The notes: generated by a model not told the origin, from the sequence alone. Counted from the first letter of the stretch, positions 4,913-34,740 are shown. The stretch: 64,000 nt of DNA from Minisyncoccota bacterium (GCA_041664585.1 JBAYKL010000002.1:88328-152327); one strand, 5' to 3'. Numbers and translations: made by a program.

Positions 4913-7615
4913 ATGAGTACAACAAATAAAAAGGGGGTGGCTGGTAAAAAACCAGCTGCAAAAAAACAAAAGTATGTTTATGCTTTTGAAGAAGGAAATA
5001 AGAGCATGAAAGAAATACTCGGAGGTAAGGGTGCAAACCTAGCAGAAATGATGGGTTTGGGAATAAATGTCCCTCCTGGTTTTACTGTCACTACAGAATC
5101 TTGTAGACTTTACTATGAAGAAGGCAAGAAAATAAATGACGAAGTAAAAAAGCAAATAGACGCAAATCTTATTAGTCTAGAAAAGAAAATGGGAAAGAAG
5201 CTTGGAGATGCAAACGATCCCCTTCTTGTTTCTGTTCGTTCTGGAGCAGCAGCATCTATGCCTGGTATGATGGACACCATCTTAAACCTTGGTTTAAATG
5301 ATAAATCTGTTTTGGGTCTTGCAGAAAAAACAGGTAATGCTCGTTTCGCTTGGGATTCTTACAGAAGGCTCATTCAAATGTTTGGAAGTGTTGTTATGGA
5401 AGTTGAGCATTCAGACTTTGAACACATCTTGGAATCTGTAAAGGATACAAAAGGTGCAAAAATAGATACAGACCTTACAGCAGAAGACCTAGAAGAAATT
5501 GTTACAAAATACAAGAACAAAATTAAAGAAGTAAAAGGTATTGGCTTCCCTCAAGATCCTATAAAACAAATGTATATGGCGATAAATGCTGTATTTAATT
5601 CTTGGAACAATTACAGAGCTATCAGATATAGAGAAATAAATAGCATCAAGGGTCTTATTGGTACTGGAATAAATATACAAGCGATGGTATTCGGAAATCT
5701 TGGAGAAGATTCTGGAACTGGTGTTTGCTTCACAAGAAATCCTTCCACTGGAGAAGCAAAATTCTATGGTGAATATCTTATGAACGCACAAGGAGAAGAT
5801 GTTGTTGCTGGTATTAGAACCCCATTATCTGTCTCTACCCTATCAAAGCAAAACCCAAAGATATATAAGGAGCTTGTAACTGTTTGTAACAAAGTTGAAA
5901 AACATTACAAAGATATGCAAGATATGGAATTTACAATTGAAAAAGGTAAGCTCTATATTCTACAAGCAAGAAATGGTAAAAGAACAGCTGCTGCTTCCGT
6001 AAGAATCGCAGTTGATATGGTGAAAGAAAAACTCATCACTCTTGATGCAGCAATTCTCAGAATTGATCCAAATCAATTAAACCAACTTCTACACAAACAA
6101 CTCGATCCTATAGCAAGAGACAGAGCAGAAGTTATCGCTCAAGGTCTTCCTGCATCTCCTGGTGCCGCTGTTGGAGAAATTGTATTTACAGCATCAGAAG
6201 CTTTTGAAAAAGCTAAATCTGGTCTAGACGTAATACTTGTTCGTACAGAAACATCACCAGAAGATATCGATGGTATGCACTCAGCAAAGGGTATTCTTAC
6301 AGCCAGAGGAGGTATGACATCTCACGCTGCTGTTGTTGCTCGTGGTATGGGCACTTGTTGTGTCGCTGGATGTTCAGATTTAATCATAGATGAAAAAGCA
6401 AAAACACTTACAATAAAGAGCAAAAGCCTCACAATAAAAGGAGGAGAATTTATCTCTTTAGACGGTTCAACAGGAAAAGTTTATGCTGGTAAATTAGGAA
6501 CTCAAGATCCTTCGCTTTCAGGAAACTTCGGCACTCTTATGACTTGGGCTGATAAATTTAGAAAGTTAAGTATCAGAACAAACGCAGACACTCCACATGA
6601 TGCAGACGTTGCTAGAAAATTCGGCGCAGAAGGTATTGGTCTATGTAGAACAGAACACATGTTCTTCGAAGGAGAAAGAATTAAAGCGATTAGAGAAATG
6701 ATTCTTTCATCCGATCTAGAAAGCAGGAAGAAAGCTCTAGCAAAAATTGCTCCATATCAAAAAGGAGATTTCGCAGGATTATTCAGAGCTATGGATGGAT
6801 ATTCTGTAACAATCAGACTTCTAGATGCTCCTCTTCATGAATTCTTACCAAAAGAAAAGAAAGATATTGAAGAGATTTCAAAAGAGATGAATGTTGATGT
6901 AAAAACTCTAAATGCAAAAATAGAAGATTTACACGAATTCAACCCAATGCTTGGACACAGAGGTTGTAGACTTGCTATCACTTACCCTGAAATTTACGAC
7001 ATGCAAGCAACAGCAATTATTGATGCTGCAATAGAATGTGTAAAAGGAGTCGGTGGTAAAAAAGTAAAATCTGTTAAACCAGAAATTATGATCCCTATTG
7101 TTGCAACAACAAAAGAATATACTATTTTGAAAGATAGAATAGTAAATATTGTTGAGGCAAAAATAAAAGCTGCAAAAGTAAAAATAGATTACAAAGTTGG
7201 TACGATGATTGAAGTTCCGAGAGCCGCTCTTATAGCTGATAAGCTTGTAGAAGCTGGTGCAGAATTCTTCTCATTTGGTACAAATGATCTTACACAAATG
7301 GGTGCTGGACTTTCAAGAGATGACGCCGGTAAGTTCCTCAAGGAATACGTCGCTCAAGATATCTTCGCTTATGACCCATTCGAAGTATTAGATCAGGAAG
7401 GTATTGGTGAACTTATAAGAATTGCTGTTAAGAAAGGAAGAGGCGTTAAGAAAGATTTGAAGATTGGTATTTGTGGAGAACACGGCGGAGAACCAAAAAC
7501 CGTCGAATTCTGTCACAGAGAAGGCCTCACGTACGTATCTTGCTCACCTTTCAGAGTTCCGATTGCAAGACTTGCCGCAGCACAAGCTGTTGTAAGAGAA
7601 AAATCAAAGAAATAG
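4913..7615 (+). CDS. ppdK: pyruvate, phosphate dikinase
   Basis: KYVYAFEEGNKSMKEILGGKGANLAEM matches the PPDK N-terminus. It also has the central phospho-His domain (GGMTSHAAVVARGMGTCCV) and the C-terminal PEP-utilising TIM barrel (NDLTQMGAGLSRDD). The track ORF begins at 4832, but the first 27 residues are hydrophobic junk, so the start is assigned to the ATG at 4913 (MSTTNKKGVAGKKPAAKKQKYVYAF). Confidence 0.93.
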   Translation: MSTTNKKGVAGKKPAAKKQKYVYAFEEGNKSMKEILGGKGANLAEMMGLGINVPPGFTVTTESCRLYYEEGKKINDEVKKQIDANLISLEKKMGKKLGDANDPLLVSVRSGAAASMPGMMDTILNLGLNDKSVLGLAEKTGNARFAWDSYRRLIQMFGSVVMEVEHSDFEHILESVKDTKGAKIDTDLTAEDLEEIVTKYKNKIKEVKGIGFPQDPIKQMYMAINAVFNSWNNYRAIRYREINSIKGLIGTGINIQAMVFGNLGEDSGTGVCFTRNPSTGEAKFYGEYLMNAQGEDVVAGIRTPLSVSTLSKQNPKIYKELVTVCNKVEKHYKDMQDMEFTIEKGKLYILQARNGKRTAAASVRIAVDMVKEKLITLDAAILRIDPNQLNQLLHKQLDPIARDRAEVIAQGLPASPGAAVGEIVFTASEAFEKAKSGLDVILVRTETSPEDIDGMHSAKGILTARGGMTSHAAVVARGMGTCCVAGCSDLIIDEKAKTLTIKSKSLTIKGGEFISLDGSTGKVYAGKLGTQDPSLSGNFGTLMTWADKFRKLSIRTNADTPHDADVARKFGAEGIGLCRTEHMFFEGERIKAIREMILSSDLESRKKALAKIAPYQKGDFAGLFRAMDGYSVTIRLLDAPLHEFLPKEKKDIEEISKEMNVDVKTLNAKIEDLHEFNPMLGHRGCRLAITYPEIYDMQATAIIDAAIECVKGVGGKKVKSVKPEIMIPIVATTKEYTILKDRIVNIVEAKIKAAKVKIDYKVGTMIEVPRAALIADKLVEAGAEFFSFGTNDLTQMGAGLSRDDAGKFLKEYVAQDIFAYDPFEVLDQEGIGELIRIAVKKGRGVKKDLKIGICGEHGGEPKTVEFCHREGLTYVSCSPFRVPIARLAAAQAVVREKSKK

Positions 7616-7624
7616 TCAGACATT

Positions 7625-7655
7625 AAAAAACTGCCCAAATTTGGGCAGTTTTTTG
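7625..7655 (+). terminator. rho-independent terminator of ppdK
   Basis: CTGCCCA-aatt-TGGGCAG followed by TTTTTT. Confidence 0.8.
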
Positions 7656-7671
7656 ATTATTTAATCACATA

Positions 7672-7700
7672 TTGACAAAAAGACGACAAAGAGTTAGTAT
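7672..7700 (+). promoter_or_regulatory. sigma-70-like promoter (TTGACA, 17-nt spacer, TAGTAT) driving the structured RNA
   Basis: TTGACA at 7672-7677 and TAGTAT at 7695-7700. No ORF with an SD follows. A GC-enriched structured segment follows instead. Confidence 0.55.
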
Positions 7701-7705
7701 TATAA

Positions 7706-7890
7706 GTGGAGCTGTGATATTTCTGTTCTGTGGGATCAGGTCCTTAGTCTCCACCGGCAAAACCTACCGGTTGAAACCCTCGTTACCTGTCCTCTGTACG
7801 GAGAACCTGCGGACAAGATATCACAGCTCCACCCACTTTGTTCTTTTGTCGGACTTTCACCCGTTGCTACTTACTGCAGCGGGTTTTTTA
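7706..7890 (+). ncRNA. candidate structured non-coding RNA of unassigned class (a riboswitch-like leader cannot be excluded)
   Basis: A perfect 15-bp closing helix (GTGGAGCTGTGATAT 7706-7720 with ATATCACAGCTCCAC 7818-7832) encloses a multi-stem core. Sub-helices include ACCGG-caaaaccta-CCGGT and TCTCC/GGAGA, and a CGGCAAAACC segment. A 20-nt linker and an intrinsic terminator follow (CCCGTTGC-tacttact-GCAGCGGG-TTTTTT, 7860-7889). GC content is locally elevated relative to the flanks. Confidence 0.45.
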
Positions 7891-7941
7891 TTTCCCAAAA
7901 AGAGTTATAATTAACCCGTTATTAGTTAATATCATAAAATT

Positions 7942-8220
7942 ATGGGATTATTTTGGACAGATGCAAAACCAAGGGTTACAGAGATTGAATTTCATAAAGT
8001 AAGAGCGGAACTTGCTGGGGATAATTTTACTGAAAAAGAAAGAGATCGAATCGAAGAAATATTTCGTGCAGATTTATATGAAGAAAAAGAGAAAGATAAA
8101 GGAATAGATGAACAAGAAATAGACAAAGGAGTTGCTTGGATGAGAGAACACGTAAGCGAACATCATATATCACTAGAAAAGATAGATATTCTGGAAAAAA
8201 AGCTAAAAGCTAGACTATAA
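7942..8220 (+). CDS. hypothetical acidic protein
   Basis: 92 aa, E/K-rich (EKERDRIEEIFRADLYEEKEKDKGIDEQEIDKG), with no recognisable motif. It is followed by its own terminator. Confidence 0.45.
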   Translation: MGLFWTDAKPRVTEIEFHKVRAELAGDNFTEKERDRIEEIFRADLYEEKEKDKGIDEQEIDKGVAWMREHVSEHHISLEKIDILEKKLKARL

Positions 8221-8227
8221 ATATCAC

Positions 8228-8260
8228 AAAAAGGACCTCTTTATAAGAGGTCCTTTTTGT
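8228..8260 (+). terminator. rho-independent terminator
   Basis: AGGACCTCTT-tat-AAGAGGTCCT followed by TTTTT. Confidence 0.8.
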
Positions 8261-8302
8261 GATATGCTCTTTGCGGATAAGTAAACCAGGAAGGAGAATA
8301 AT

Positions 8303-8647
8303 ATGGGTAATGTGGTTGATAATCTGAAGGAAAGATTTGAAAACAGAAAAGTAAAAGCAATTGTCGGAAATTTAGATTTTTTTAGGCTTCTTCAAGAATG
8401 CTTAAATGCAAAGGAAAGTACAGATGAAGAAAAACATCTGAAAAAGATAGCCTACGAAAATCTAAAAAAGACTTGTCTTACTCTGGACCCGAAAGACGTC
8501 CGGGTTTTACTAGCATACATACAAGTACCTAGAAGCCACCCCATTAGCAATATTCTAAAGGAAGCGGTTTCTAGATCGGATCTAACCTACGAAGAATGGT
8601 GTTGGGCAGTTAGTCAGACATTTTTCACAGATGGTCCCAAAAAATAA
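8303..8647 (+). CDS. hypothetical protein
   Basis: 114 aa, preceded by AGGAAGGAG 8 nt upstream. No recognisable family. Confidence 0.5.
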   Translation: MGNVVDNLKERFENRKVKAIVGNLDFFRLLQECLNAKESTDEEKHLKKIAYENLKKTCLTLDPKDVRVLLAYIQVPRSHPISNILKEAVSRSDLTYEEWCWAVSQTFFTDGPKK

Positions 8648-21008: not shown

Positions 21009-21037
21009 TTTGACATCCTTAAACCATTGGAATACTA
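21009..21037 (+). promoter_or_regulatory. promoter of the thrS T-box leader
   Basis: TTGACA (21009-21014), a 17-nt spacer, then TACTAT (21032-21037). Confidence 0.55.
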
Positions 21038-21043
21038 TATATC

Positions 21044-21217
21044 TATAGAGATTGTTGTGGCTACCAACCACAATCCGTATAAAAACGGACCAACTGGCTA
21101 ATCTATTAAATGAGAGTCCGTTTTAAAAACGGAAAACTAGGTGGAACCACGAACAATTATAGAATTGTGCGCCCTGGTAAGAATACAAGTGATTGTATTT
21201 TTACCAGGGCGATTTTA
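21044..21217 (+). promoter_or_regulatory. T-box riboswitch leader with a threonine specifier (ACC), upstream of thrS
   Basis: The T-box sequence AAACTAGGTGGAACCACGAAC (21135-21154) matches the consensus AATTAGGGTGGTACCGCGG. A downstream 11-bp terminator (GCGCCCTGGTAA ... TTACCAGGGCG then ATTTT, 21169-21216) has a 5' arm overlapped by the antiterminator. An upstream hairpin TTGTGG-CTACCAA-CCACAA displays ACC followed by A in its loop. Confidence 0.75.
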
Positions 21218-21241: not shown

Positions 21242-23032
21242 ATGGAACAAGAGAAATTAATGAGAATGAGACACTCGCTCGCCCATCTACTTGGTGCAGC
21301 GGTTTTAGAAATCTGGCCAGATGTGAAAATTGCTACTGGTCCTGCAATAGACAATGGTTTTTACTATGACTTTGATTTTAATTCTCCTATAGTAGAAAAA
21401 GATTTAGGAAAGATAGAACAGAAGATGAGAGAGCTAGTAAAAAAGTGGAACGGCTTTGAGAAAAAAAATATTTCATATGAAGAAGGTAAAAAGCTTTTTG
21501 CTGGTAATCCATACAAACTAGAACTTATAGAGGAATACAATAAAGATGGTAAAGAACTTAGTATTTATACTTCTGGTAATTTTACAGACCTTTGTGCAGG
21601 ACCACATATAGATGATATTAAAGAAATAAAAGCAGATGCATTCAAACTAGATAGAATTGCTGGGGCATATTGGAAAGGTGATGAAAAGAATAAAATGCTT
21701 ACAAGAATATATGCACTGGCTTTCGCTTCAAAAGAAGATTTAGAAAATTATTTGAAGCAAAGAGAGGAAGCAGAAAAAAGAGATCACAGAAAAATTGGAA
21801 AGGAATTAGATTTATTCCATATGGATGAAAAAGTGGGTTTAGGTCTACCTTTATGGCATCCTAAAGGTGCTATTCTCTGGAGAGTAATCGAAGACTTCTG
21901 GTATCAGGAACACCTTAAAAACGGTTACGATTTGGTCAGAAGCCCACACATAGGTAATAAGGAACTTTGGGAGATATCTGGACACTGGGGATTCTATAAC
22001 TCAAGTATGTATCCTCCACTTGAAGCGGGGCAAACACTTAAAGAAAAACAAGAAGGTAAAAAAATAGAACACTCTGAGGAGTATCTATTGAAGCCGATGA
22101 ACTGTCCTTTCCACGTACAAATATATAAAAACTCACCAAAATCATACAGACAATTCCCTTTTAGATGGGCTGAGTGCGGTACTGTATATAGATTCGAAAA
22201 GAAAGGAGAATTATCTGGACTAACCAGAGTCAGAGGATTTACACAAGATGATGCTCATATTCTTTGTAGAAAAGATCAAATAGAAGAAGAACTCAAAATG
22301 GTTATAGATTTTATATTGTTTATATATAAATCATTTGGTTTTGATATAAATTCAGTAAAGGTCTTCCTATCTCTCAGAGATCCAGAAAACAAAGAGAAAT
22401 ACGCTGGTAATGATGAGGGTTGGAATTACACAGAAGAAGTTCTAAGAAAAGTTGCCGTAGAAAAGAAACTAGATTTCACCGAAGAAAAAGGAGAAGCTGC
22501 ATTCTATGGACCAAAATTAGACTTTAAGATAAAAGATGCTCTAGGTAGACTTTGGCAATGTTCAACACTTCAATTTGATTTTAATCTTCCAGAAAGATTT
22601 GATCTTACTTTTGTAAACTCAAAAGGAGAACAAGAAAGACCATATATGCTTCATAGAGCCCTTTTTGGAAGCTTCGAAAGATTCATTGGTCTATTAATCG
22701 AACACTACGCTGGAGCCTTTCCACTGTGGCTTGCACCAGTACAAATAAAAATTGTACCAGTAAGAGAAAATCACAACGACTATGCTAAGAAAATTGGTGA
22801 CGAGTTAAAGAAAGATGGATTCAGAGTGGATTGTGATTTAAACCCTGGAAACATGGGTGGGAAAGTAAGAGATGCAAAAAATAATAGAGTTCCATATACA
22901 ATTATCGTCGGAGATAAAGATATGTCAGTAAACAAAATAACCGTAGAAAATAGAGATAAGGGTCAACTTGGACAAATGGATTTGAAAGACTTTATTGAAA
23001 AAATCAAAGAAGAAAAAGAAAAGAAATTATAA
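21242..23032 (+). CDS. thrS: threonyl-tRNA synthetase, without an N-terminal TGS domain
   Basis: Begins at the second additional domain (HSLAHLLGAAV...) with the Zn-binding editing motifs. It has a class II core (...RVRGFTQDDAHI..., FYGPKLDF) and a C-terminal anticodon-binding domain. 596 aa. Confidence 0.93.
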   Translation: MEQEKLMRMRHSLAHLLGAAVLEIWPDVKIATGPAIDNGFYYDFDFNSPIVEKDLGKIEQKMRELVKKWNGFEKKNISYEEGKKLFAGNPYKLELIEEYNKDGKELSIYTSGNFTDLCAGPHIDDIKEIKADAFKLDRIAGAYWKGDEKNKMLTRIYALAFASKEDLENYLKQREEAEKRDHRKIGKELDLFHMDEKVGLGLPLWHPKGAILWRVIEDFWYQEHLKNGYDLVRSPHIGNKELWEISGHWGFYNSSMYPPLEAGQTLKEKQEGKKIEHSEEYLLKPMNCPFHVQIYKNSPKSYRQFPFRWAECGTVYRFEKKGELSGLTRVRGFTQDDAHILCRKDQIEEELKMVIDFILFIYKSFGFDINSVKVFLSLRDPENKEKYAGNDEGWNYTEEVLRKVAVEKKLDFTEEKGEAAFYGPKLDFKIKDALGRLWQCSTLQFDFNLPERFDLTFVNSKGEQERPYMLHRALFGSFERFIGLLIEHYAGAFPLWLAPVQIKIVPVRENHNDYAKKIGDELKKDGFRVDCDLNPGNMGGKVRDAKNNRVPYTIIVGDKDMSVNKITVENRDKGQLGQMDLKDFIEKIKEEKEKKL

Positions 23033-34664: not shown

Positions 34665-34740
34665 TGGAGCCACCTCTCGGGCTTGAACCGAGGACCTATT
34701 GTTTACAAAACAATTGCTCTACCAACTGAGCTAAGGTGGC
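34665..34740 (-). tRNA. tRNA-Thr (anticodon UGU), CCA encoded
   Basis: The reverse complement is GCCACCT-TA-GCTC-AGTTGGTA-GAGC-A-ATTGT-TTTGTAA-ACAAT-AGGTC-CTCGG-TTCAAGC-CCGAG-AGGTGGC-T-CCA. All four stems are canonical and the anticodon is TGT at positions 34-36. Confidence 0.85.

Follow-up and report, generated by a model that had tools for sequence, protein, structure and literature searches.

Here, we analysed a 64-kb stretch of DNA from a Minisyncoccota bacterium (the window) and found, between ppdK and the gene of a 92-aa ORFan protein, what is probably a separate transcription unit that encodes a small, structured non-coding RNA. The RNA would represent an undescribed family from a narrow clade of Paceibacteria-like Patescibacteria and would act in trans via unpaired motifs. 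At the sequence level, our results establish its transcription signals, its covarying structure, its non-coding nature, its strand and its independence from the downstream gene; we infer that it acts in trans and that either a protein or a complementary RNA serves as its partner. Patescibacteria (CPR) have tiny genomes and RNA regulation in these bacteria is almost undescribed; a literature search for CPR-specific sRNAs or a specific regulatory RNA of Patescibacteria yielded no report. That genomes as reduced as these retain a strongly covarying scaffold of 127 nt implies a function under selection. The gene provides a concrete candidate RNA, and a covariance model would allow others to map its real distribution. 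It can be counted, in a broad sense, among the small RNA genes of bacteria, while the family itself is undescribed; given its narrow known range and its unassigned function, we regard it as a solid but modest discovery rather than as a surprise.

The locus is organised in the order ppdK, RNA, 92-aa ORFan (CDS 7942–8220, on the same strand as the RNA), a 114-aa ORFan and then, on the opposite strand, ackA and xfp. Transcription of the RNA is predicted to start from the near-consensus promoter that had already been noticed in a preliminary description of the sequence: a −35 box TTGACA (7672–7677, plus strand) and a −10 box TAGTAT (7695–7700, plus strand), separated by 17 nt, match 10 of 12 consensus positions. 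The promoter is one of 23 sites of similar quality within the 64-kb window. Its −35 box is invariant at nine of nine orthologous loci, and the −10 box reads TATCAT or TAAGAT in other lineages. The separate intrinsic terminator (7859–7889, plus strand), likewise recognised before, consists of a 9-bp stem (7859–7867 with 7876–7884) and a T-run (7885–7889), and six of the eight consensus pairs of its stem show compensatory changes across the orthologues. If transcription starts 5–6 nt past the −10 box and stops at the T-run of the terminator, a primary transcript of ~185 nt (7705–7889, plus strand) is predicted, of which positions 7705–7858 are matched by the two covariance models (R1 and R2) described below. 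Over 7700–7849 the GC content is 0.48–0.51 compared to ~0.25–0.40 in the flanks, in agreement with the GC enrichment reported earlier. The unit is bounded on both sides. Upstream, a terminator scan revealed a hairpin (7622–7657, plus strand) behind ppdK, with a counterpart in front of the RNA promoter in the orthologues; as the ppdK transcription unit ends there, the RNA is not a ppdK 3′UTR. Downstream, the boundary is set by the −10 box TATAAT of the 92-aa gene (7906–7911, plus strand), which is kept in all orthologues, including the RNA-less locus L214.

Eight further distinct sequences have the same promoter-RNA-terminator unit in the interval from ppdK to the 92-aa gene, and the known family consists of nine distinct sequences from one narrow clade. 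Each unit comprises TTGACA, a spacer of 16–17 nt, TAnnAT, a structured region of ~130 nt, a conserved single-stranded tail and a terminator. The sequences form four subfamilies (A: the window, L095, L094 and the partial L005; B: L086, identical to L185, and L096; C: L089, L092 and L093; D: L209), between which the helix sequences diverge widely with their pairing kept. All homologues of the locus were reached via the 92-aa protein, through six clusters in a first search (75–87% identity) and six more in a profile search (down to 47%), and the linkage of RNA and gene is therefore partly an ascertainment effect. The protein family is very small (12 clusters among 5.8 billion proteins). A scan of JGI metagenome contigs with a three-motif pattern returned 112 stretches, one of which, L185, is a true member. 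The six matches of a pattern scan of viral contigs were all due to chance, BLAST searches of phage and plasmid collections gave no match to the RNA, and there is no second copy within the 64-kb window. A covariance-model match in L153/L155 turned out to be false, as it corresponds to a near-perfect hairpin palindrome of ~300 nt (L153, ~5330–5640) on an unrelated metagenome contig with few ORFs.

At the ppdK locus, only part of the relatives have the RNA. Among species-representative genomes, the closest relatives of ppdK (77–86% identity) belong to Patescibacteria MAGs (Paceibacterota, Buchananbacteria, ‘Patescibacteria group’), and the regions downstream of ppdK in the nearest representatives (L006–L009) do not contain the RNA. 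At the loci L214 and L215, ppdK, its terminator, the TATAAT box, the same 5′UTR and the 92-aa gene (70% protein identity) occur in the same synteny with a gap of only 110 nt and no RNA at the site. Homologues of the 92-aa protein with 52–54% identity lie in other contexts, which leave no room for the RNA.

The preliminary description had proposed a multi-stem core closed by a perfect 15-bp helix, and both elements were recovered. The region 7700–7890 folds into a multi-stem structure with a minimum free energy (MFE) of −72.5 kcal/mol, compared to −47.2 ± 4.3 kcal/mol for shuffled sequences (z = −5.9; none of 200 as good). In the window alone, however, the minus strand folds as well as the plus strand, so that the fold energy there cannot tell the strands apart. 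The closing helix P1 is a perfect 15-bp inverted repeat of 7706–7720 and 7818–7832 (plus strand), with compensatory changes in 10 of its 15 pairs and support from the Infernal alignment and RNAalifold; in the MFE fold it grows to 27 pairs with two one-base bulges. It is followed by P2, formed by CUGUGGG (7728–7734, plus strand) and CCUGCGG (7806–7812, plus strand), for which the alignment counts (100% of cells paired, six of seven pairs compensatory) agree with RNAalifold and in which G-U pairs favour the plus strand. P2 leads into the P3 arm (7737–7789, plus strand), whose base helix (7737–7741 with 7785–7789) is weaker (78% paired) and which ends in the apical hairpin P3b (7753–7757 with 7767–7771, plus strand; 100% paired, two of five pairs compensatory). 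The 9-nt loop of P3b (7758–7766) holds the sequence ACCU (7762–7765), which is kept in subfamilies A–C and lost in L209.

Two covariance models were built, R1 from subfamily A alone and R2 from subfamilies A, B and C. R1 finds the members of B and C in full length (E = 2e-9 to 6e-6) and R2 additionally finds L209 (E = 7e-5). Since MAFFT was unable to align the subfamilies structurally, hand-made and Infernal alignments were used, and the following covariation counts refer to only nine distinct sequences and to alignments that were themselves fitted to the structure. In the Infernal alignment, 94.2% of the cells are paired, compared to 72.7% in shuffles (0 of 500 reach the observed value), and 21 of 32 pairs show compensatory changes, whereas at most five do so when the partners are slid by 1–3 columns. 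The helix on which the earlier structural reading was built is thus both conserved and covarying in related genomes. RNAalifold, applied to the same alignment, recovers P1, P2 and P3b independently, with 19 of 29 pairs compensatory; in the hand-made structural alignment, which was fitted by eye and also covers P4 (see below) and the terminator, pairing amounts to 98% and 33 of 51 pairs are compensatory. Folded individually, each sequence adopts the same architecture, in which P1 and P2 are followed by a long P3 arm that ends in an apical hairpin, and the L209 copy folds no better than its shuffles (z = −1.2). Conservation and covariation in related genomes lift the element above chance; the evidence from the window alone is suggestive, but not decisive.

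The strand follows from an excess of G-U over A-C pairs in the helix cells (23 vs 3) together with the orientation of promoter and terminator, both of which place the RNA on the plus strand. An 80-aa ORF (7672–7914) is present in the window, but had been judged not credible beforehand, and indeed the same frame is interrupted by one to five stop codons in every orthologue; no conserved reading frame exists in any frame across the orthologues. Orthologous conservation, compensatory changes and the missing reading frame support the core of the preliminary description, a promoter-driven structured RNA with its own terminator. Of the options which that description left, the novel sRNA is the one that survives.

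Which parts of the molecule would then do the work? The most conserved block in the alignments is a pyrimidine-rich motif (7785–7803, plus strand; consensus CCUGUCCCUGUACAA, window copy ACCUGUCCUCUGUAC), which is kept even in the divergent L209 copy. It contains a small hairpin, P4 (7792–7795 with 7800–7803, plus strand, loop GUAC), which forms in subfamilies A and B. There, CCUGUCCCUGUACAA makes up the loop and the 5′ strand of P4; in C it is the single-stranded 3′ strand of the junction, and in D it is retained. A second motif, UUUGUUCUUUYGU (7837–7849, plus strand), lies in the tail between P1 and the terminator, consists of invariant columns and is unpaired in every MFE fold. Both motifs share UGU(A/U)C. 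Motifs that stay constant and single-stranded while the scaffold drifts suggest that a conserved partner is recognised, be it a protein or a complementary RNA. Pairing of the two conserved regions with each other, GUACAARR with the tail sequence UUUUGUUC, is possible in all members, but was judged sterically unlikely within one molecule as it would have to span a rod of ~25 bp; since neither side varies, covariation cannot support it.

We propose that the sigma-70-type promoter (7672–7700) starts transcription at ~7705 and that the first ~127 nt of the transcript would fold into a long rod of P1 as closing helix, P2 and the P3 arm with its apical hairpin. CCUGUCCCUGUACAA would be presented on the short P4 hairpin or, in some lineages, on the junction strand, followed by a single-stranded tail of 26 nt with the invariant UUUGUUCUUUYGU and by the intrinsic terminator, at which the transcript would end at ~7889. 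The helices would constitute a fast-evolving scaffold and the invariant unpaired pyrimidine-rich motifs the working surfaces, which may bind a protein (RNP or sequestration type) or a complementary A-rich RNA, e.g. mRNA 5′ ends. Two features known from trans-acting sRNAs are visible in the sequence signals: the short non-coding transcript is framed by its own promoter and intrinsic terminator, and it carries conserved single-stranded seed candidates, as UUUGUUCUUUYGU and CCUGUCCCUGUACAA are invariant or nearly so, with helices that vary.

The search for RNA partners gave one weak hint. Duplex searches against the start regions of the 53 ORFs of the window performed no better than shuffled queries, and exact complements of the RNA motifs showed no meaningful enrichment in the window. 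With G-U pairs allowed, the tail is complementary to AUGAAAGAACAAA, and two window ORFs, coding for a CARDB/PKD surface protein and for ribosomal protein S2 (rpsB), start with this sequence with one mismatch; the count of two is reached by only two of 90 composition-matched patterns, the real one included, for a hypothesis that was formed after looking at the data. A further-reaching version of the trans-acting RNA, which we consider rather improbable, is that it forms the core of a new regulatory system confined to these Patescibacteria, in which Shine-Dalgarno (SD) sites are scarce and leaderless mRNAs are apparently common. Its tail, as complement of AUG-AAA-GAA-CAA-A, might pair with mRNA 5′ ends such as that of rpsB, or the RNA might sequester a protein through its two UGU(A/U)C sites and so act as a global regulator, in the role that 6S- or CsrB-type RNAs fulfil elsewhere. 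A role of the ACCU loop as an anti-SD mimic was dropped in view of the scarcity of SD sites in the genome and the loss of the loop in L209.

The layout of the locus invites a different reading, namely that of a cis-acting leader, in which a riboswitch or a protein- or tRNA-dependent attenuator controls terminator read-through into the genes of the 92-aa and 114-aa proteins. The preliminary description had listed a riboswitch-type leader of the gene at 7942 among its options, and the RNA does lie close upstream of the 92-aa gene, always on the same strand. Moreover, the succession of promoter, conserved structured domain, terminator and gene is the classic one of riboswitches and T-box leaders and is used in this genome by a weakly scoring T-box-like element in front of thrS. 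We nevertheless consider the leader unlikely. P1, with 13–27 bp, is much too long and far too stable for switching, and neither a switching helix nor a conserved antiterminator was found: the best pairing of an upstream segment with the 5′ arm of the terminator reaches −5.6 to −8.3 kcal/mol at a place that differs in each orthologue, whereas the terminators themselves reach −11 to −16 kcal/mol. In all lineages, the TATAAT box and a conserved 5′UTR are situated between the terminator and the ATG, and insertions of ~50–110 nt are tolerated between terminator and promoter. The 92-aa gene also exists without the RNA, with promoter and 5′UTR maintained in L214 and L215 and with the more distant homologues (52–54% identity) in their other contexts. 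The separate promoter of the 92-aa gene and the RNA-less lineages indicate that the RNA is a gene of its own, which only part of the lineages possess.

The RNA might also be the partner of the adjacent 92-aa protein in a small clade-specific ribonucleoprotein, which we regard as quite unlikely. In favour of such a pair, RNA and protein share a narrow distribution and adjoin in nine lineages, in which the protein remains 68–87% identical while the RNA helices drift. This linkage is in part the ascertainment effect described above, however, and the protein occurs without the RNA in L214, L215, L211 and L212. Sequence searches with the protein in Pfam, NCBIfam, PADLOC and PDB gave no match, and its AlphaFold model (pLDDT 77.6), a small, mostly helical protein, has no Foldseek match in the PDB and resembles no known RNA-binding fold. 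Searches of the neighbouring proteins for families, PDB entries and folds likewise gave no match and no functional clue to the RNA.

Among known RNAs, a highly divergent 6S-type RNA, which would mimic an open promoter and thereby bind RNA polymerase holoenzyme, deserves consideration, although we hold it for very unlikely. The length of ~185 nt, the rod closed by the 5′ and 3′ ends and the strong own promoter with its perfect −35 box resemble 6S RNA (RF00013 and relatives), and the poor sequence conservation of 6S RNAs makes a missed Rfam match conceivable. The 6S-like option of the preliminary description did not hold up, though: no 6S model matched at the gathering threshold, at E ≤ 10 in the search of 361 nt or at E ≤ 1 in five orthologous loci, and there is no conserved two-sided central bubble, as internal loop 1 measures 7 × 5 nt in B and C but is closed in A and the P2/P3 junction is one-sided with 0–6 nt on the 5′ side. 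The RNA is furthermore missing at the syntenic site of one sister lineage (L214) and near ppdK in the closest outgroups, which would be odd for a housekeeping regulator. A palindromic element acting at the DNA level, for example a MITE-like insertion or a cruciform bound by a protein, would account for the perfect 15-bp inverted repeat, the equally good fold of the minus strand, the presence in some related lineages and absence in others and a 15-nt imperfect direct repeat flanking the unit at 7688 and 7899, but is extremely improbable, as the element is single-copy in 64 kb, the flanking repeat consists of two copies of the extended −10 consensus of the genome (GTTATAATT), the 23 G-U versus three A-C pairs indicate selection at the RNA level on the plus strand, promoter and terminator are conserved and correctly oriented, and phage, plasmid and viral collections hold no match.

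Rfam 15 at the gathering threshold detected only a tRNA in the window and nothing at this RNA, and searches at E ≤ 10 on 7600–7960 (361 nt) and at E ≤ 1 on five orthologous loci returned just terminator-type chance matches. ARAGORN found neither a tRNA nor a tmRNA at the RNA, the sole tRNA of the window being tRNA-Thr (34665–34740), which together with the Rfam result supports the earlier statement that the RNA could be matched neither to tmRNA nor to RNase P. SRP (4.5S) RNA had not been matched either, on the ground that a GGAA/AGGUCC motif of helix 8 is missing. This detail was wrong, since AGGTCC is present at 7738–7743, but the other subfamilies do not conserve this sequence and a GGAA tetraloop that could partner it is absent, and the exclusion of SRP RNA therefore stands. 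The long, hairpin-like rod interrupted by internal loops, the AGGUCC of the window copy and a CCACC-like 3′ end after P1 are reminiscent of SRP RNA (RF00169); here, however, the GNRA tetraloop of helix 8 is absent, the apical loop measures 7–9 nt and holds ACCU, GGAA and AGCA loops are not conserved and no Rfam model matches. A survey of Parcubacteria reported the absence of both ffh and ffs (PMC4508563). We also rejected a retron ncRNA, as no reverse transcriptase is adjacent (the neighbours are ppdK, two small ORFans, ackA and xfp), and a Y-RNA-like reading on its defining features; reverse transcriptase, recombinase or nuclease genes are not found next to the RNA.

The preferred reading, a trans-acting small RNA gene, places the molecule close to two groups of bacterial RNAs. 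Terminator-ended trans-acting sRNAs, e.g. those of the RsaE/RoxS type of Gram-positive bacteria, constitute the general class. They have in common with the RNA described here an own promoter, a structured body, unpaired pyrimidine-rich motifs, a terminator, a length of 100–200 nt and the confinement to one lineage. The covarying multi-helix rod of 127 nt is more elaborate than most base-pairing sRNAs, however, the host has hardly any SD sites that could be occluded, and there is no similarity in sequence or model. Orphan structured ncRNA motifs discovered by comparative genomics, e.g. the raiA motif and OLE, form the second group. As in these, a GC-enriched, covarying intergenic structure of unassigned function is found in an AT-rich genome; in contrast, the known range of nine sequences is far narrower, the RNA is smaller than OLE and neither motifs nor model matches are shared.

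Several observations were made in the surroundings of the RNA. The 92-aa ORFan gene is apparently monocistronic: it has a −10 box of its own, and a bidirectional terminator hairpin of 20 bp (8222–8264) directly follows the stop codon. Its 5′UTR contains an AT-rich, partly palindromic element (7918–7931; GTTATTAGTTAATA, consensus TTAnTAATTAA), which is kept in all orthologues including L214 and may be an operator or a translation signal. The third gene of the locus occurs in two forms of 114–118 aa and 145–161 aa with a mutual identity of only 20–27% (window, 8303–8647, compared to L096, 2461–2898; L209, 5355–5792; and L089, 1532–2017). The form tracks neither the RNA subfamily nor the similarity of the 92-aa protein, which suggests recombination among the lineages. 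In L089 (~1046–1190) and L090, a GC-rich insert of ~110 nt (CCCTGCCTGACGCAGGCTGGGCTCGG...GCCCGCCTCAGGAGGGC), which is limited to that lineage, separates the terminator of the RNA from the promoter in front of the 92-aa gene. L089 and L092 originate from one assembly (GCA_974330205.1; CDCLZZ010000055.1 and CDCLZZ010000033.1, respectively), which thus contains two versions of the locus RNA-92aa-X-ackA-xfp with 92-aa proteins 80% and 75% identical to that of the window and with third genes that differ in type; two related organisms are probably mixed in this bin. Upstream of a homologue of the 92-aa protein with 47% identity, the GC-rich region 380–560 of L213 contains a terminator as well as the string CCUCCUGUCCCU. 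The region may be related to the RNA in a very divergent form, but was left out of the family as it is not significant with R2 and has a fold z-score of +0.4.

Beyond the locus, SD sequences are nearly absent at the ORF starts of the window (e.g. 1256, 12220, 20969, 32217, 42206, 46710 and 56580) and many genes have a TATAAT box just 8–15 nt upstream of the ATG, which together implies widespread leaderless or near-leaderless mRNAs. The T-box-like element mentioned above is a leader at 21010–21215 (plus strand) with a promoter (TTGACA, 17 nt, TACTAT), a GGUGGAACCACG box and a terminator, located upstream of an ORF (21242–23032) with the domains of threonyl-tRNA synthetase (thrS). In a local search it scored 34.9 bits (E = 1.9e-6) with the Rfam T-box model, whose gathering threshold of 93 explains why it is missed at that setting; the leader appears to be a T-box of reduced or divergent form in a genome of the Patescibacteria.
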